NCBI GenBank assembly: GCA_963667255.1
Contig: OY762940.1
Location: 608,001 to 672,000, forward strand
From: Candidatus Cloacimonadota bacterium
GTDB taxonomy: Bacteria; Cloacimonadota; Cloacimonadia; G963667145
Length of the DNA stretch: 64,000 nt
Direction: 5' to 3'
Shown: piece by piece, positions 6,792 to 63,691 of the stretch
How the letters are laid out: each line of letters begins with the position of its first letter
Numbering within the stretch: position 1 is the stretch's first letter
The notes under the pieces: model-generated
Told to the model about the DNA's origin: nothing
The model's database searches: none
The model's input: the letters and a program-made list of their open reading frames with translations, nothing else
Position numbers and translations under genes: made by a program

Positions 6792-7027
6792 ATAAATTGG
6801 TTCATTATTCTTTGTAGTTTGAACCAACTTCAACTCATTTTATTTTGCTTATATCAGGCAAGGAAATTTTGTTTTTTTTAGTTAAGAAATTTTTTATTGT
6901 CCATTTTTGCGAGATAGAAGAATTGTTATTTAGCTTCTCTGAAAAATGGGGGAAAAGAGTCAGCTCAAAAAACGCTTGACAGTTTACTGAAATAATCGGA
7001 CTTACTTGGCAAAAAAGTAGGGGGTGA

Positions 7028-8236
7028 GTGATGAACAATTTGACTGAAAAGTTGTCTGCCTTGGCAAGTAAAGGCGAACGCTCTCTCATTAGAGAAATTT
7101 TGAAATTGCTGGATAAAGGCGATGTTATTTCGTTTGCTGGAGGTCTCCCGTCGCCAGAGTCTTTTCCGACTGGGGACATCAGCAAGGTTACAGCCAAGAT
7201 TTTGGCAGAAGAGGGTGAAATCGCTTTGCAATACGGAGCTACCGAGGGCGACAAGATTTTGTGTGAGCAATTGGCTCTTTACAATAACCGCAAGGGATTT
7301 GGCATTAAACCCGAAAATGTTTTGCCGACAGCTTCGTCTCAACAGGCGTTGGATATTATCGGGAAGATGTTTTTGGATGCGGGCGACAACATCGTCATGG
7401 GGCTTCCGTCATATCTCGGAGCGATTAACGCTTTCAAGGCTTACAATCCGAACATTATCGGAGTCAAGCATGACGAAAAAGGTTTGTCGGCTGATGGGTT
7501 GCGAAATGTTTTGAAGGGGTTGCAAGCGAAAGGGGAAAGAGCTAAATTTGTATATCTTGTTCCCGATTTCCAAAATCCAGCCGGAATCACTATGCCATTG
7601 GACAGAAGAGTGGAGATTTTGGCAATCGCCAAGGAGTTCGACTTGCTTATCATCGAGGACTCTCCTTATTGCGAGATTCGTTTTTCCGGCGAACATCAAC
7701 CGACCTTTTATAGTTTGGACGACATGGGACGAGTTTTGAATTTGGGCACTTTTTCCAAAGTGTTGGCTCCGGGATTTCGTTTAGGTTGGATAATCGCTTC
7801 TACAGAAATTTTGGATTCCGCCATCGTGGTAAAGCAGACGATGGATTTGTGCACCAGTCCGTTCATTCAGAGGATTGCCGGACGATATATGGAAGCCGGA
7901 TATCTTGAGGCGAATTTGGGAGGTATCATCGATTCCTACGGGAAAAAAGCTCAAACAATGTTGAAAGCGTTTGAGGAGTTTATGCCAAAAGGCGTTACTT
8001 GGACGACTCCCGAGGGCGGATTGTTTCTATTCCTAAGATTGCCCGAAAATATTGATACCGAAAAGCTTTTGGAAGTGGCGATTAGAGATTACAAAGTCGC
8101 TTTTGTTCCGGGAGTTGTTTTTCATTGCGATGGCTCCGGCAGAAATACCATGCGAATGAATTTTTCTTACGAATCGGAAGAGACGATACGCGAAGGTGTG
8201 AAGCGACTGGCTGAGGCTATCAAGGCGAATATGTGA
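7028..8236 (+). CDS. PLP-dependent aminotransferase class I/II (LysN/Aro8-like)
   Basis: ISFAGGLP, LQYG.TEG, PDFQNPAG, IIEDSPY, GTFSKVLAPGFRLGW (PLP lysine). Confidence 0.92.
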   Translation: MMNNLTEKLSALASKGERSLIREILKLLDKGDVISFAGGLPSPESFPTGDISKVTAKILAEEGEIALQYGATEGDKILCEQLALYNNRKGFGIKPENVLPTASSQQALDIIGKMFLDAGDNIVMGLPSYLGAINAFKAYNPNIIGVKHDEKGLSADGLRNVLKGLQAKGERAKFVYLVPDFQNPAGITMPLDRRVEILAIAKEFDLLIIEDSPYCEIRFSGEHQPTFYSLDDMGRVLNLGTFSKVLAPGFRLGWIIASTEILDSAIVVKQTMDLCTSPFIQRIAGRYMEAGYLEANLGGIIDSYGKKAQTMLKAFEEFMPKGVTWTTPEGGLFLFLRLPENIDTEKLLEVAIRDYKVAFVPGVVFHCDGSGRNTMRMNFSYESEETIREGVKRLAEAIKANM

Positions 8237-51336: not shown

Positions 51337-52116
51337 TTAATATTTATTATTGTTTATTTTTTTATAACTTCCTCTACCTTTAAATTCAATAATTCCTTTA
51401 TCCCTAAGAATTTGTAATTGCTGTCTAATCTTATCTTTGATAAAGTTGTTGTTGGGATATTTTTGTTTCAAATTTTCTTCGAAATAATACATACTCTCAA
51501 GAGAGAAATCTTCAGTTGGGATAGTATCAACACACTTCATAATATCAAGAATCCATCCTTTTGATTCTTTCTTTTTATCTCTCAGAAATAATGTTTTTTC
51601 AAAAGATTGAGTTACAATTTTGGGGTCAATTATTTTTGTATTTTTAACTAAAAAGACCTTTCCTGCATTTGCAACTTTTGAAATATTTATATTACAGACA
51701 ATCCATCCTGCTCTTCTTGCTGTTTCTTTAAGTGGCGGTCTTTTAATAATAATTTCTTCTGTGAAAAATTGTTTTGGTATTATTAAGAAGTTTTCAACTT
51801 TCCAATTTTTTGAATATGTGAGAAAAAAGAAATTCGGATTATTTTCTGAGTTTATTCTTTCAATCATTGTTGAATAAGCACCATCTGTAATAGTAGTAGA
51901 TAATTTGCCATTTTTGCTTTTTAATTCAAATTCTTCTTTGCAATTATTACAAAAAAAATCAGCAACAGGGCTGTTATTTTCAAATTCATTCAATGGGATA
52001 TTTCCACAATGTGGACAATATGAGTTGTGCAATACCCAATCTTCTGTTAATCTCCGTGCTATTTGAGAATTGCTTTTATAACCTTCTGCTAATTTCAAAT
52101 TAAAATCTAAATTCAT
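51337..52116 (-). CDS. dpnC: DpnI-family (Dam-replacing) methyl-directed restriction endonuclease
   Basis: YKS.SQIAR.LTEDWV....YCP.CG, N.PVADF.C..C.E.FELKSK, DGAY.TM..R, C-terminal winged-helix YP.NN.IKDKIRQQLQ.LRD.G.IEF.GRG.Y. Confidence 0.92.
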   Translation of the reverse strand: MNLDFNLKLAEGYKSNSQIARRLTEDWVLHNSYCPHCGNIPLNEFENNSPVADFFCNNCKEEFELKSKNGKLSTTITDGAYSTMIERINSENNPNFFFLTYSKNWKVENFLIIPKQFFTEEIIIKRPPLKETARRAGWIVCNINISKVANAGKVFLVKNTKIIDPKIVTQSFEKTLFLRDKKKESKGWILDIMKCVDTIPTEDFSLESMYYFEENLKQKYPNNNFIKDKIRQQLQILRDKGIIEFKGRGSYKKINNNKY

Positions 52117-57065: not shown

Positions 57066-57140
57066 GCGGAAGTAGCTCAGTGGTAGAGCCTCACGTTGCC
57101 AACGTGATTGTCGCGAGTTCAAATCTCGTCTTCCGCTCCA
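57066..57140 (+). tRNA. tRNA-Gly(GCC)
   Basis: GCGGAAGTAGCTCAGTGGTAGAGC...TTGCCAA...GTTCAAATCTCGTCTTCCGCTCCA. Confidence 0.96.
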
Positions 57141-57147
57141 TTTTTTT

Positions 57148-57221
57148 GGCGACATCGCCAAGTGGTAAGGCAAGGGTCTGCAAAATCCTCATCCCCAGTT
57201 CGAATCTGGGTGTCGCCTCCA
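57148..57221 (+). tRNA. tRNA-Cys(GCA)
   Basis: GGCGACATCGCCAAGTGGTAAGGC...CTGCAAA...GTTCGAATCTGGGTGTCGCCTCCA. Confidence 0.96.
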
Positions 57222-57234
57222 GTTTCAATTACTT

Positions 57235-57321
57235 GCCGGAGTGGTGGAATTGGTAGACACAAGGGACTTAAAATCCCTCGGGCTTTAGTCCGTGCCGGTT
57301 CAAGTCCGGCCTCTGGTACCA
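57235..57321 (+). tRNA. tRNA-Leu(TAA)
   Basis: GCCGGAGTGGTGGAATTGGTAGACAC...CTTAAAA..., long variable arm, GTTCAAGTCCGGCCTCTGGTACCA. Confidence 0.96.
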
Positions 57322-57373: not shown

Positions 57374-58654
57374 ATGTCGGAAATTCCCAAGATTGTTTCC
57401 ATTATCTCCTTCGGTTGCAAAGTCAATAGCTACGAGTCCGCCTGTATAGCCGAAGATTTTTCCCAAAAATACAAAGTAGTCTCCAAATATAACGCTGAAG
57501 CTGTGATTTTCATAGTCAATACTTGTGCTGTAACCGCCAGAGCAGGAGCAAAATGCAGGCAGACTATCCGCAAGATTTTGAAACTCAAGGAAGTTAATTC
57601 GCGAGTGGTTTTAGTAGTTACGGGATGTTTGGCGAATGTGGAATCGGATTCCTTGAAAGAGATAGGAGATATCGACTATTTTATCAAAGACAAGTCGCAG
57701 ATTTTCAATATTGTTCACGATTTAGAAAACCCAGTCCAATCCACTGGCTACATTGAGCAGAAAACGAATAAAATGTATAATCGCACGCGTGCTTTTGTCA
57801 AAATTCAGGACGGTTGCAATTTTTTTTGTGCGTATTGCATTATCCCTTACGCGCGGGGTGTCCCAACTTTTCGTGATTTTGGCGATGTCATCAAGCAGAT
57901 AGAGATTCTTGTCGAAAATGGCTATCGCGAGGTTGTTCTCGGTGGCATCAATATTGGTTTGTATAACTATCACGGGAAAAATCTTAAGGATTTACTTTTT
58001 GCCATAGAGGAAATTGCCGGTCTAAAAAGGATGAGGATTTCGTCCATCGAACCGCAACATGTGAAGTCGATTTGGAATTTTATTTGCTCCAGTAAGAAGC
58101 TTGTTCATCATCTGCATATTCCCTTGCAATCGGGCAGTGATGAGATTTTGCAAGCTATGGGCAGACGATATGAGGCGAAGGAGTTTGAGGATTTGGTCGA
58201 AGATTTGAAGAAATTTGATTCTCATTTTGCTATCGGTTGTGATGTGATTGTGGGTTTCCCAAATGAGAGCGAGGAGAATTTCCAAGAGAGCTATTCGTTC
58301 ATCAAGAAATTACCGCTTTCCTATTTGCATGTTTTCCCATACTCTTTGCGGAGAGGCACGAAAGCAGCAGGAATGAACGGGCATTTATCCCAAGAAATAA
58401 AAAAGAGGAGAGCCCATCTTTTGGGAGAGTTATCGCTAACAAAGAAAAGAGAGTTTGCGGAGTTGCTCATCAAGGATAAGGTTGTTCTAACCGCACAATT
58501 GGAGCAGAAGAAAGGGAACTATGCGACAGGTGTCAGCGACAGATATTTGCCAGTTTATGTGGCGGATTTACCCGCAGATGGCAGAGAGGTGCAAATTTTG
58601 CCAGGTACTCTATTCAATGACGGTGTGCTTGGGAAATGGAATGGCTTAAAATAA
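57374..58654 (+). CDS. mtaB: tRNA t6A37 methylthiotransferase (MiaB-like radical SAM)
   Basis: FGCKVNSYES, NTCAVT, VTGC, KIQDGCNFFCAYCIIP..RG, R.RISSIEP, HLHIPLQSG, HVFPYS.R.GT. Confidence 0.9.
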   Translation: MSEIPKIVSIISFGCKVNSYESACIAEDFSQKYKVVSKYNAEAVIFIVNTCAVTARAGAKCRQTIRKILKLKEVNSRVVLVVTGCLANVESDSLKEIGDIDYFIKDKSQIFNIVHDLENPVQSTGYIEQKTNKMYNRTRAFVKIQDGCNFFCAYCIIPYARGVPTFRDFGDVIKQIEILVENGYREVVLGGINIGLYNYHGKNLKDLLFAIEEIAGLKRMRISSIEPQHVKSIWNFICSSKKLVHHLHIPLQSGSDEILQAMGRRYEAKEFEDLVEDLKKFDSHFAIGCDVIVGFPNESEENFQESYSFIKKLPLSYLHVFPYSLRRGTKAAGMNGHLSQEIKKRRAHLLGELSLTKKREFAELLIKDKVVLTAQLEQKKGNYATGVSDRYLPVYVADLPADGREVQILPGTLFNDGVLGKWNGLK

Positions 58655-58686
58655 GCACTTACAACCATTTACCCAAATAGAAAGTT

Positions 58687-59142
58687 TTATCCAATAGTAA
58701 TAGTATAAGCTTGCTCACCTTCAATATGTAAATTTGGTTTGCTTCCATCAAACCTAAAATATTTACAGCCTTTACACCTATCAATACCATGGTTTCTTTG
58801 AGAGAGACATCCTAAACAACCACCGTGAAATATTATGTTAGGGTTATTACCTCTAATTACCTTAGCATCAGGTAGGTACTTTTTATACATTTTACTACTA
58901 TTTTGGTCTTTCCAAATATGATAATCTATGTAGTCATTATCTCTCAAAGAATCACTATCACCATATCTACCATCAATTTTTTCAGCAACCCAAATTTGCT
59001 CAAACTTATCTTCCTTAATAAAACTACTGTCTATATTCAGGCTTGTTTCTCCCAATTCCGTAGGATTACTATCTATAACAACATGTATATCACATTGCTT
59101 AGTTTCTGTCTTTTTACCAAATAATCGTTTAATCCAATTCAT
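58687..59142 (-). CDS. Hypothetical protein with C-terminal CxxC...CxxC
   Basis: AAGGAG RBS; GGCLGCLSQR...RCKGCKYF; AT-rich. Confidence 0.65.
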   Translation of the reverse strand: MNWIKRLFGKKTETKQCDIHVVIDSNPTELGETSLNIDSSFIKEDKFEQIWVAEKIDGRYGDSDSLRDNDYIDYHIWKDQNSSKMYKKYLPDAKVIRGNNPNIIFHGGCLGCLSQRNHGIDRCKGCKYFRFDGSKPNLHIEGEQAYTITIG

Positions 59143-59262
59143 TTTATCTCCTTAAATTTGTTCTTAATTCCGCAACGTGGCATACACAAAACGTTCTTTA
59201 TAAATAGGGGGAAAATTACTTTTTAATCTCGTTTGTCTTTTGTATCCAATTTGTTGTTTCTA

Positions 59263-60924
59263 TTACACAAAGCCAACTTTAGTTGCCGTGTTACTTAAAG
59301 TTTCATCAGTACAAAAGCCCATCAATTTTGAAAATGAAACTTTCTCATTATAAATTATTTCATGGATTTCATTTTTGCGGAAAATATTATCAATTTGGCC
59401 ACTCGAGAAATCAAATTTTTCTGCCAATAAATCACAATTCTGTTGAGTTAAAAAAGGCAATTTTAGTTTCCAAATTTTTGATCTAACATCAATATTAGGC
59501 TTTTGGAATTTGATTTTAAATAAAAATCTTCTTTCAAAAGCAGAATCGAGATTATTTGATAGATTTGTAGTTGCTATCAAAATTCCTTCAAAATTTTCTA
59601 ACTCTTCCAGAAGAATATTTTGTATCGCATTTTGAGTTTGACCAGTACTGGAAATGTTGATGTCTATTCTTTTAGAAATTATAGCGTCAGCTTCATTAAA
59701 AAATAGAATAGGTACCTTAGAGCAATCTTTTGAATAAAAATTATAATCAGTAAAAATTTGTTTTACTATTTTTTCACTTTCTCCAAACCACATTGATTTT
59801 GATTGGCTTAAATCTACATGAATTATCTCTCTTTTGGTTTCTCTAGCTATCTGTTTCACTATTTCTGTTTTGCCAGTGCCAGGTGCTCCATATAGCAGAA
59901 CAACAATTCCTTTTGGCAAATTTTTCTCTGTTAAACGTTTTTGGGTACTTTTGAATTTTCTTTCTTTCAATAAATTTTTTAATAGGTAAAGTTGTTCCAT
60001 CTCTGTGTTGCTAAAAATTAATTTTCTTGAGGGTATTTTATCAGAGAAAATTATGTTTTTTTCATTTTTTTTATTAATGGTTATATTGATTCCACATTCT
60101 TTAAGTAAATTTAGAGAAAAATCTGTGAGAGCAACTTGTGTATCTTGCACAAATCTTGCTTTTACAATTTCGATTAAATTTTGTTCTATAAGAACATTTT
60201 CCCCAGAGCTAATTTTTTGTAAAATTTCCACCACTTTTACAGTTTTATCATAGATTATATCTATAACTCTTCTAATTTCAAAGCTTTTAGTTCCTCGCAT
60301 TGTATTCCAAATTAAATGGACATATATGTAAAAATTTTCAACATCTAATTTTAAAGAATTTATCTTTTTTAATAGAGGAAAGTGCTTGTTCGCTTCTCTT
60401 ATCTCTTCAACAGTTTCAAAAAATTCTTCGGTTGTAATATTATCATCATCGCGATTATATAATGCTTGTGAGAAGCTCGACAAAACATCATAAATATTAG
60501 AAATCTCATTTTCTTTTATTTGGGGAATAGGCTTATTCTGGATAATTGCTCTAGATATTTTGCTATTTACTCTATATAAATGTTTGCATATTCTACCTTT
60601 TACTACAGCATTCCAGAAAGGTCTTAGTAAAATACCAGAGCGAATTAGATTTAAAATTTCTTCTTGAAACTTAAAGATTTTTACTGTGCTACAACAAAAA
60701 TGGTCGGCTAACTCCTTATAAGTTGGAGATTCTTCTTGAGATTCAAAAGCAAAGATAAGAGAAATAAAAAAAGCTTGTATTTTATTAGTTTTGAATTGTT
60801 TTGCAAGGTAGGTTAATTCAGGGTCTATCTTTGTAAAAAAAGTTTCCTCTAACTTAGAATCATTAGATTCTTCATAAACTTTTTCTATGGTTTCTATAAT
60901 TATGAATTTACCTTTTTTTGTCAT
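59263..60924 (-). CDS. AAA+ ATPase with long N-terminal region
   Basis: Walker A GAPGTGKT, SMWFGESEK, variant Walker B ILFFNEAD, ATTN....LD.AFERRF. Confidence 0.9.
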   Translation of the reverse strand: MTKKGKFIIIETIEKVYEESNDSKLEETFFTKIDPELTYLAKQFKTNKIQAFFISLIFAFESQEESPTYKELADHFCCSTVKIFKFQEEILNLIRSGILLRPFWNAVVKGRICKHLYRVNSKISRAIIQNKPIPQIKENEISNIYDVLSSFSQALYNRDDDNITTEEFFETVEEIREANKHFPLLKKINSLKLDVENFYIYVHLIWNTMRGTKSFEIRRVIDIIYDKTVKVVEILQKISSGENVLIEQNLIEIVKARFVQDTQVALTDFSLNLLKECGINITINKKNEKNIIFSDKIPSRKLIFSNTEMEQLYLLKNLLKERKFKSTQKRLTEKNLPKGIVVLLYGAPGTGKTEIVKQIARETKREIIHVDLSQSKSMWFGESEKIVKQIFTDYNFYSKDCSKVPILFFNEADAIISKRIDINISSTGQTQNAIQNILLEELENFEGILIATTNLSNNLDSAFERRFLFKIKFQKPNIDVRSKIWKLKLPFLTQQNCDLLAEKFDFSSGQIDNIFRKNEIHEIIYNEKVSFSKLMGFCTDETLSNTATKVGFV

Positions 60925-60956
60925 ATAATGAACTCCTTTATTTTATTATGAAAATG

Positions 60957-61313
60957 CTATTTTTCTTTTATTTTTTCGAGACAATATTTGCAGTCCTCCT
61001 CAGAAATTTTCCCTTGATCTTTGAATGATGTAAGAATTGGCATTGCAAAGTCGTTGGGTAAAGTATGCCAAGTTGGATATCCTCTAGAGTTTGGATCTCC
61101 GATTTTTGACCAAAACCAACGTGTTGCCAACCTGTGGCTTCCTTCCCACAACAATAGAGCCAATGCCCATCTATTTTTTTCATCTATATAAATTATTTTT
61201 TTGACAGATGAAATTTTTTGTCTGGGGAAATTAATCAGTTTAGCATTTTCTTCTGTAACTTTAATCCACCCATCTTCGTCTAATTCAAAACCGTATTTTT
61301 TAAGATCTGCCAT
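60957..61313 (-). CDS. Hypothetical Trp-rich 118-aa protein
   Basis: AAGGAG RBS; W.LA.L.WEG...LA.RW...G.PNSRG.PTW..LP. Confidence 0.7.
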   Translation of the reverse strand: MADLKKYGFELDEDGWIKVTEENAKLINFPRQKISSVKKIIYIDEKNRWALALLLWEGSHRLATRWFWSKIGDPNSRGYPTWHTLPNDFAMPILTSFKDQGKISEEDCKYCLEKIKEK

Positions 61314-61328
61314 GGCTTATCTCCTTTT

Positions 61329-62012
61329 TTAGTGTTTTTTCCACATTTCACAAATATTTTTTATTGCTTCTAAATATTGATTATAATTTGGTATAGAAGG
61401 ATGCTTTATAGAGTGAATAATGGATTTATTCAAATTGGTACTCTGTTTATATTTGAGAATATTATCACCACTCATTGCATTGAAACTATTACATCCTGCC
61501 TTTCCGCCTATAATAATTATGTCAGCTTCTAAAGCCTGAATTTCAGCATATATTTTCTTTCCGAGACAACTTTTCCCACTATCAATAATTGCAGTATAAT
61601 TTTCTCTTTTTGTTGAATTAGAAGTTGGACGTATATTATAATAAGTGATTTTGTTCAAAGTATCATTTTCTATACTCTTAATATTGTTGTAAGCCTCTTT
61701 CAAATCTTTTCTTGTAGGTTCTTTTCCTTTTTCTAAGCAATCCAATACTACTTTAGCAAAAGCTAAAGAGTATCTTACGGTTCTTGTTCTTGTGTTGCCT
61801 TTATCATTTAGCCAATCGCAGAGAGTCTTTTTACCAACATCAAAAATCTTACATTTTTCATATCCGTAAGGCTCTTCATTGATAATTAAAACTTTAATTT
61901 CTTGCTCCCAAAACAAATTTGAGATAGGACTATAAAACATATGATGCTCAATATGTCGTTGATCAATAAACTTTTTTGTTTCTTTTCTTGCATTTTTAAA
62001 AATTTCCTCCAT
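61329..62012 (-). CDS. Hypothetical protein, uracil-DNA-glycosylase-like fold (tentative)
   Basis: KVLIINEEPYG, YYNI, EI..L.ADIIIIGG and C-terminal HPS follow the UDG-superfamily motif order; start set to ATG 62012 after GGGAGG. Confidence 0.55.
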   Translation of the reverse strand: MEEIFKNARKETKKFIDQRHIEHHMFYSPISNLFWEQEIKVLIINEEPYGYEKCKIFDVGKKTLCDWLNDKGNTRTRTVRYSLAFAKVVLDCLEKGKEPTRKDLKEAYNNIKSIENDTLNKITYYNIRPTSNSTKRENYTAIIDSGKSCLGKKIYAEIQALEADIIIIGGKAGCNSFNAMSGDNILKYKQSTNLNKSIIHSIKHPSIPNYNQYLEAIKNICEMWKKH

Positions 62013-62174
62013 TAGTTCCTCCCATATTTTTATATTAAACCAGAGAAAGAATTCGGAGAAAATTGTCAACATAAATGATAATCTTTATTATAACTGACGT
62101 CAGCATAATAAAACTCTTATTTTTTTAGTTTTATTAGAAGGGTCGTTTACTATAAAAACAATAGAATAAGTTAC

Positions 62175-63539
62175 TTATCGGAAGGTTTTATTTAGGGGGT
62201 AAAATTTTTTCAAACTGATGTTGATTGAGGTGTATTTTTTGATTTCGCTCAAATAGATGAGGTTGTCTTCGGTTCGCAGTTGACAGCCAGTAAAGGTTTC
62301 GACCTCAAAATTTCCCATAATTTCCAAAACGATTTGGTCTATGTCAAAATTGCTGGCAACCTCAATAATATTTTTATCGGTAACGAATTTCAGTTGTTTG
62401 CGTTTTTTGAGCCAAGTTTTTATCTCTTTTTGGCTATCAAAATAAATCTCCGGATTATGCCCGATTTTGACTATTTTTTTTATTAGATTAAGAGAATATT
62501 TAATGTCATACAAATCTGAAAATCTGAAAGAAAATCCGATAGCTCCATTGGTTTGATATGCATAATCTATGAGCGACGAAATTTGGGTTTGAGCTGAGGA
62601 TTCATCCGCTATTTTATAATCTCCATCCATCAAGTCTTTGCTGGAAAAGGAAGCAAATAGTTCCTCTTTTTCGGATGGGAAAAAAATGTTCTTTTTGACA
62701 GGCAAATTCTCTGTATCGGCTTTTACCAGATTTTTGTTTATTCGGAAGAGCTCTTTTTTTACCTCTAAATTTTCGGGGTCAAAATTGCTGTTGTTTTTTA
62801 GTAAACAGTAGGTCAATTTGGGAATGGCTTCTAATAAGTAAAAATTCCAATATGGTTCATCATTTTTGAAATTGAGGGTAAAGTATTCTTTGATGGCTGA
62901 AATCGGATGCGAAAATAGATTCTTGATAATTTTCTTCAATGTTTTCGAATAGCTTTTCCATTTGTAAAGTCTGTCAATTTCTGCAATTAGGGATATAGCG
63001 AATTTTTCGTTGTTAGGCCACATTTTTTTGCGTATCATACAATGGTCATCATCGACACACTCTTCTATGAAGGTTAAAAAGTTGTTCAGCAGTAAGTTGC
63101 AGATAGGTTTATTGGAGGAATCTACTTGATAAGTGGAAAACTGATAGATATTACCAAACAAATCGAAATTGTAAAAAAAACATCTCGTAAAATCGTCTTT
63201 CTTTTCTTGGATGTCAGGAGGCATAGGGCTCAAAACATGGAATGTAGAGAACTCTTTTTTTAATTTCTTAGATTCTGCTTCGGTCAATTTTTCGTATAAA
63301 TCGGGATTGAATGAAACAAAGAAGATGTTGGAGCATTTGCAGTATTTTATCAAGTCGGTAATTTCACGATTTTTGGGTCGATTTAGCGAATAACACATCA
63401 GAATGTCGTCCTCTTCAATCTCCATAAGTCCTGCAATAATCTCGTGTTGAAAGCCCAAATATTCAAAGCTGAGGTCCAAAACTTCCGTTATTTTTTCTGT
63501 ATAAGTTTCTAATTTTTCGTCAATAATAAGTTTTATCAT
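62175..63539 (-). CDS. Hypothetical protein, degenerate polysaccharide deacetylase-like
   Basis: WPNNEKFAISLIAEID resembles the WP..K.FA..LTHDVD segment of deacetylase-like proteins; start tentatively ATG 63539. Confidence 0.45.
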   Translation of the reverse strand: MIKLIIDEKLETYTEKITEVLDLSFEYLGFQHEIIAGLMEIEEDDILMCYSLNRPKNREITDLIKYCKCSNIFFVSFNPDLYEKLTEAESKKLKKEFSTFHVLSPMPPDIQEKKDDFTRCFFYNFDLFGNIYQFSTYQVDSSNKPICNLLLNNFLTFIEECVDDDHCMIRKKMWPNNEKFAISLIAEIDRLYKWKSYSKTLKKIIKNLFSHPISAIKEYFTLNFKNDEPYWNFYLLEAIPKLTYCLLKNNSNFDPENLEVKKELFRINKNLVKADTENLPVKKNIFFPSEKEELFASFSSKDLMDGDYKIADESSAQTQISSLIDYAYQTNGAIGFSFRFSDLYDIKYSLNLIKKIVKIGHNPEIYFDSQKEIKTWLKKRKQLKFVTDKNIIEVASNFDIDQIVLEIMGNFEVETFTGCQLRTEDNLIYLSEIKKYTSINISLKKFYPLNKTFR

Positions 63540-63691
63540 AAGTCCGTTTGTTTGAATTCCGTAGATAACTTGTTTTATTTGCAAATAATAATAAGAGCCA
63601 ACACAAACAAAAAAAAATCGATTTAACTGCCGTCAAGTAAAATTTGTGTTGACATTGCTTACTTGGGTGTTGATGTTGTTACAATTGAACG

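Follow-up and report, generated by a model that had tools for sequence, protein, structure and literature searches.

The island of four genes between mtaB and the next core gene is a real foreign insertion of 3.5 kb, most likely an accretion of unrelated mobile genes and not an undescribed four-gene system. It lies in a 64,000-nt stretch of a Candidatus Cloacimonadota genome that was analysed as a whole (the window; Table 1). Of lasting interest is gene 1, a candidate glycosylase that may act alone in defence and belongs to an unnamed, mobile family with the uracil-DNA glycosylase (UDG) fold, whose predicted catalytic motifs are intact. As a first-pass annotation had described, the four genes are co-oriented minus-strand open reading frames convergent on mtaB, the first three are separated by 15 nt (genes 1 and 2) and 32 nt (genes 2 and 3), and strong ribosome-binding sites precede the genes (GGGAGG at 62023-62018, and AAGGAG); the gap between genes 3 and 4 is 120 nt. 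All four reading frames and motifs are intact, and GC3 is alike across the genes (0.20-0.29). The start of gene 1 is most likely at 62012, since its relatives begin at the same point.

Table 1. Features of the insertion and its flanks (window coordinates)
Feature	Position	Strand	Description
Insertion	58655..62174	.	3520 bp between the stop codons of mtaB and the core gene
Gene 1	61329..62012	-	227 aa UDG-superfamily protein, predicted DNA glycosylase
Gene 2	60957..61313	-	118 aa, widespread small family
Gene 3	59263..60924	-	553 aa classical AAA+ ATPase with a long N-terminal region
Gene 4	58687..59142	-	151 aa, two CxxC pairs, likely metal-binding
mtaB-like radical-SAM gene	57374..58654	+	Left core flank; orthologs in congeners, broken in G004
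Unnamed core gene	62175..63584	-	Right flank, on the island's strand; matched in 5/5 congeners
Palindrome CTGACGTCAG, then TATAAT	62085..62103	-	Single copy in genome; possible operator and -10 box

The island is a foreign insertion

Foreign origin, proposed at first pass from base composition and GATC sites, is shown directly by an empty site in 5/5 same-genus genomes, where the DNA match ends at mtaB and restarts in the next core gene, and is further supported by words that the host avoids. In one of these genomes (G001), 3 nt separate the two convergent stop codons, compared with 3520 nt in the host. The island is the lowest-GC 3.4 kb stretch of the window (29.3% GC vs 39.2% for the window), which bears out its reported AT-richness, and GC as low as this was seen in 3.6% of 469 genome tiles. 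The four GATC sites reported earlier are present, along with a fifth at 59480 (5 observed vs 1.2 expected, P=0.008); across the host genome, GATC occurs at 0.09 of the expected frequency. Both ACGT (6 vs 0.12 expected) and GTAC (6 vs 0.8) are stronger foreign signs than GATC. Pooling six host-avoided words gave 21 occurrences in the island, a count equalled in 3/451 genome tiles, which we take to be rRNA operons from their appearance. Two runs of one sample each contained one contig spanning the island and both flanks with zero differences, and a contig in one run of a second sample from that study covers mtaB to 60429, although these samples may include the source data.

No terminal repeat or target duplication above chance was found at the island's ends, and no integrase scored over the cut-off anywhere in the host genome. 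An attC search of the window copy returned nothing at E<2.8, using a model built from 7 sites that could miss divergent ones. Neither of the features that define an integron cassette array (attC sites and an integron integrase) was thus found for the window copy. A cluster of tRNA-Gly, tRNA-Cys and tRNA-Leu lies upstream of mtaB (57066-57321); integration at a tRNA was rejected because the three tRNAs are 1.3 kb off, beyond mtaB.

Some further observations were made around the site. The host genome strongly avoids GATC, ACGT, GCGC, GGCC and GTAC (0.03-0.15 of expectation). The window also holds a gene for a DpnI-family methyl-directed restriction endonuclease (51337-52116, minus strand) in an AT-rich patch of its own (27% GC). 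In G004 (L015/L020), mtaB is largely deleted and stop-interrupted, with both flanks retained.

The four families were not found together

The first-pass annotation had suggested a sensor/effector module for base-modified or uracil-containing invader DNA. In such a system, the glycosylase fold of gene 1 would detect modified DNA, and the response would fall to the ATPase together with the two small proteins. Co-orientation, strong ribosome-binding sites, short gaps, and intact frames and motifs are what such a system would show. However, no other island family was found near the relatives of gene 1 (0/24 loci), gene 2 (0/17), the ATPase (0/15) or gene 4 (0/2), a survey in which many loci were short and the closest relatives seen in context numbered one for gene 2 and two for gene 4. 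The gene-2 and gene-4 families were likewise absent from whole genomes carrying gene 1 (0/13, mostly incomplete MAGs), and single-gene cassettes (see below) show that gene 1 travels alone. The neighbourhood conserved across genomes that would mark a multi-gene defence system was thus not found. The first-pass annotation had itself named homologs that never co-occur as grounds for refutation, and every locus examined showed this. As co-occurrence is absent, the claim of a four-gene system is unsupported and largely refuted, and we consider it very improbable. Searches of the literature found no description of the four-gene set, though such searches cannot exclude one. The fallback offered at first pass, accretion of unrelated genes, fits best, given that no adjacency was seen in any locus. 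The tight spacing, similar GC3 and scar-free junctions would also fit a block that was pre-assembled in a donor.

Genes 2, 3 and 4

Gene 2 belongs to a family with the motif RW..G.PNSRGYPTW. It matched no named family in Pfam, PADLOC, NCBIfam or PHROGs, and the Atlas gave unnamed clusters. Its structure model (pLDDT 89) had no Foldseek match at E<=0.001, and the best Z of 5.8 (PipX) is within background. The 231 other genomes of the host phylum yielded one weak, stop-interrupted match (E 6e-4). The 17 gene-2 loci comprised 15 from metagenomes (some of them duplicates, with only L043 close, at 66%) and two from plasmids. Some relatives are embedded in clusters of type I restriction-modification or methyltransferase genes, or have rhuM and a recombinase as neighbours; in L055-L057 (about 6812-7170), the hsdS and hsdR genes of a type I restriction-modification operon flank a family member.

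Gene 3 matches PF00004 (E 6e-26), with Walker A (GAPGTGKT), Walker B (FNEAD) and AFERRF all intact. The variant Walker B (FFNEAD) pointed out earlier is present, but it is no peculiarity of this copy because NEAD is invariant in 9/9 aligned family members. Distant members of the family were found in 13/40 relatives, all outside the host's genus (E 1e-26 to 1e-42), and the best plasmid relatives are from Bacteroidota and Arcobacter. The 15 ATPase loci comprised five from plasmids, one viral and nine from the host's class (1.5 kb flanks). The plasmid relatives are mostly near WYL, DUF262 or HAD genes: a WYL gene lies within 6-8 kb in 4/5 plasmid loci and DUF262 genes are present in two. In the closest plasmid relative (Chryseobacterium balustinum, L067 7977-9649), the ATPase is split into two open reading frames in a DUF262-WYL-dynamin cluster.

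These plasmid loci bring up another reading, that the island came from a donor as one block, as part of a larger defence or stress cluster under WYL regulation, in which some neighbours (the ATPase and gene 2) may pair. WYL genes near gene-1 relatives in L038 and L075 (the latter recognised by eye), the lack of internal scars in the island, and the resemblance of its upstream palindrome to the promoter of a gene-2 relative (see below) are also consistent with it. However, the ATPase loci lack the families of genes 1, 2 and 4, the island has no WYL gene, and the best relatives point to different sources, namely Verrucomicrobiota-type integrons, Bacteroidota plasmids and phages. We regard this reading as rather improbable.

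Gene 4 is likely metal-binding, judging from two conserved cysteine pairs (C109-x2-C112 and C123-x2-C126). It has 84 relatives, up to 77% identical; the contexts seen were two viral contigs, along with a partial match in Cellulophaga phages. It matches phrog_29620, a PHROG of unknown function, with otherwise no usable library match, no PDB sequence match and nothing usable in the Atlas. No match was found in the 231 other genomes of the host phylum, using a profile that does recover the host copy.

Gene 1 is a predicted glycosylase of the UDG superfamily

The UDG-like fold suggested for gene 1 held up in both structure and profile comparisons. Its structure model (pLDDT 91, built from 8 sequences) was compared by Foldseek, where all 45 matches listed were UDG, TDG, MUG or UdgX structures (E from 7e-4, TM 0.33-0.44), and by a VIA search, which ranked T. 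maritima UDG first (Z 10.0, rmsd 4.0, 163 residues aligned), followed by T. thermophilus UDG, UdgX and BdiUNG. The model thus places gene 1 in the alpha/beta UDG fold, as a predicted glycosylase.

By sequence, gene 1 belongs to an unnamed family of about 160 clusters (160 in a profile search at E<=0.001). We aligned 127 members (8 seeds and the 119 roughly full-length sequences of 150 clusters listed, omitting fragments and fusions). The family profile matches family-4 UDG structures (E 3e-4), with HPS aligned to HPA/HPS. Pfam UDG was matched by 16/127 members at E<=0.01, and TIGR00758 weakly by 8/127 (best E 2e-4). Gene 1 itself had no usable match in Pfam, PADLOC, NCBIfam or PHROGs and does not reach the cut-off of the curated family-4 UDG HMM, having no UDG match in Pfam or NCBIfam; no PADLOC model matches it, nor does any match as many as two of the 127 members. 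Its motifs are N45-E-E47-P-Y-G-Y, Y-Y-N126 and H204-P-S, in which E47 (95%), N126 (97%) and H204 (97%) are conserved across the 127 members and all intact in the host copy.

Relatives of gene 1 are sporadic and mobile

Gene 1 had no match in the 231 other genomes of the host phylum (1/232 in that phylum overall), and the family was found in 14/401 genomes sampled in one phylum, a sporadic distribution; no relatives were found in viral contigs or plasmids. We considered 24 loci, 13 with close relatives from the genome collection and 11 more distant ones (1.5 kb flanks) from these 14 sampled genomes. Integron attC sites were scored with a covariance model built from 7 attC-like hairpins, none of which immediately follows a gene-1 relative. 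In 4/13 close loci (L027, L028, L029 and L035), the model scored a site immediately after the gene-1 relative; the 13 loci include the near-duplicates L037 and L038, and several are short or end near the gene. L026 has an attC-like sequence there by eye, without a covariance-model score, and in L035 a true integron integrase over the cut-off adjoins the gene-1 relative. No attC was found within 1.5 kb of the distant relatives (0/11). Since single-gene cassettes carry its relatives, gene 1 moves independently, partly as single integron cassettes. Two observations concern individual cassettes. In L029 (7980-9476), a single attC array holds two different UDG-fold cassettes side by side (hhalign probability 97.7%). 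In L027 (51-125), a group II intron end, the sole Rfam match, lies directly upstream of the gene-1 cassette.

We also scanned selected neighbours of gene-1 relatives, without a background comparison. Nuclease-like or mobile matches lie beside the relatives in L033, L034, L031, L038, L075 and L078, including a PDC-S02-like protein (L033), a weak type IV restriction match with a serine recombinase (L034), and an integrase and reverse transcriptase (L031). One distant relative sits between hsdR and an integrase, and housekeeping genes adjoin several relatives (L027, L076, L079). The ATPases at gene-1 loci are unlike gene 3, being double-ring in L038 and Clp-type in L032. Taken as a whole, the family shows the context of Brig-type glycosylases, which is sporadic, mobile, and AT-rich or defence-associated.

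Upstream signals

The first-pass annotation had placed a TTGACA at 62069-62064, upstream of gene 1. The hexamer is there, but its role as a promoter was rejected, as no -10 box lies at 16-18 nt and it is absent among 28 sites listed (17.8 expected by chance). Further upstream, the region of the palindrome and TATAAT (Table 1) resembles the promoter of the close gene-2 relative (L043 2708-2732) in 22/25 columns. This score was reached by 18/3000 shuffles, is a single case found after the fact, and was nearly matched by chance in another upstream region (L071, 26 vs 28). Viral contigs contained no exact copy of the motif. The likeness would fit gene 1 having been inserted between gene 2 and gene 2's promoter. 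A bolder proposal is that gene 1 represents an unnamed, partly integron-borne clade of about 160 clusters of UDG-fold glycosylases, which protects against phages through excision of a modified base that Brig1-3 do not target, and that gene 1 in this island has captured the gene 2 promoter and may be acquiring helpers; we find it doubtful.

Proposed role of gene 1

The explanation we favour, held at about even confidence, is that unrelated mobile genes have accreted and that gene 1 is a predicted stand-alone DNA glycosylase that likely defends by excising a non-standard phage base. The four genes would have come together from unrelated mobile sources. The enzyme would flip a modified or deaminated base into a pocket around E47, N126 and H204 and hydrolyse the glycosidic bond of this non-standard base in invading phage DNA, and the many abasic sites left behind would then halt replication of the phage, in the manner of Brig1-3. 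Genes 2 to 4 would not be obligatory partners of this enzyme but passengers transcribed from a shared upstream promoter. The substrate is more likely to be a pyrimidine, since by motif position Asn126 appears to correspond to the Asn with which family-4 UDGs read uracil. Against this explanation stand the low TM values given above, the lack of attC in the window copy and near the distant relatives, the housekeeping neighbours of several relatives, the lack of a PADLOC model, and the low share of integron UDG-like candidates that gave defence (one of seven; see below), as well as the tight spacing, similar GC3 and scar-free junctions already noted.

A defence role for gene 1 alone is plausible by analogy with Brig1, Brig2 and Brig3. 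As far as the available texts of these reports describe, Brig1 excises a base, leaving abasic sites that block phage replication (PMC11078745), and both Brig2, found among integron cassettes (10.1101/2025.10.29.685425), and Brig3 (10.64898/2026.02.25.707755) defend through abasic sites in the same way. A preprint on integron cassettes reports that many unknown cassettes are defence genes, with glycosylases unmentioned in its available text (10.1101/2024.07.02.601719).

An alternative that keeps the accretion is that gene 1 plays no part in defence and serves as an accessory glycosylase in the repair of deaminated or oxidised bases. The closest solved folds to gene 1 are repair enzymes, and integron cassettes in general carry many non-defence functions. 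In addition, the available text of the Brig2 study describes 27 integron UDG-like proteins in 11 clusters, of which seven candidates were tested; one gave defence and six did not (10.1101/2025.10.29.685425). However, the host already owns a canonical housekeeping UDG, encoded separately elsewhere in its genome, and the sporadic, mobile pattern of the gene-1 family is the one described for defence glycosylases in the portion of that study available (10.1101/2025.10.29.685425). We judge a pure repair role to be unlikely.

Should gene 1 prove to remove a modified base from phage DNA, it would add to the few defence glycosylases described and might supply an enzyme with specificity for such a base. 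Defence by glycosylases is an already published principle, so what would be gained is a new family and, perhaps, another substrate.

Comparison with known systems

For gene 3, the best PADLOC and NCBIfam match is IetA/IteA of the IetAS system, with which it shares a classical AAA+ module. However, it scores 82.5 bits against a cut-off of 510 and is 553 aa long compared with about 370, and the island has no S8 protease partner, so that it does not constitute an IetAS system.

For gene 1, the best structural and profile matches are family-4 UDGs (TIGR00758, 4zbx, 1l9g), which resemble it in the Glu of the first motif, the Asn and HP(S/A), although identity is only 9-13%. Family-4 UDGs have four Fe-S cysteines, and these are not conserved in the gene-1 family.

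No Brig model surfaced in the libraries scanned with gene 1 and its family, so the Brig proteins were compared by description, as given in the accessible parts of the reports. Brig1 requires a Glu (E147) where UDGs often carry Asn (PMC11078745), whereas in the gene-1 family Asn126 appears to occupy this position. Brig3, whose fold is likened to AAG, has residues N50-P51-S52, E55 and D127 (10.64898/2026.02.25.707755), in contrast to N-x-E-x-YGY and N126 in the gene-1 family. It shares its operon with a helper gene, BapA (10.64898/2026.02.25.707755), whereas gene 1 has no conserved helper. With Brig1 and Brig2, gene 1 shares the description of a single-gene UDG-superfamily protein that is unannotated by sequence, sporadic, and located in AT-rich mobile regions. 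The gene-1 family may even be one of the 11 integron clusters of the Brig2 study, which bears directly on its novelty.
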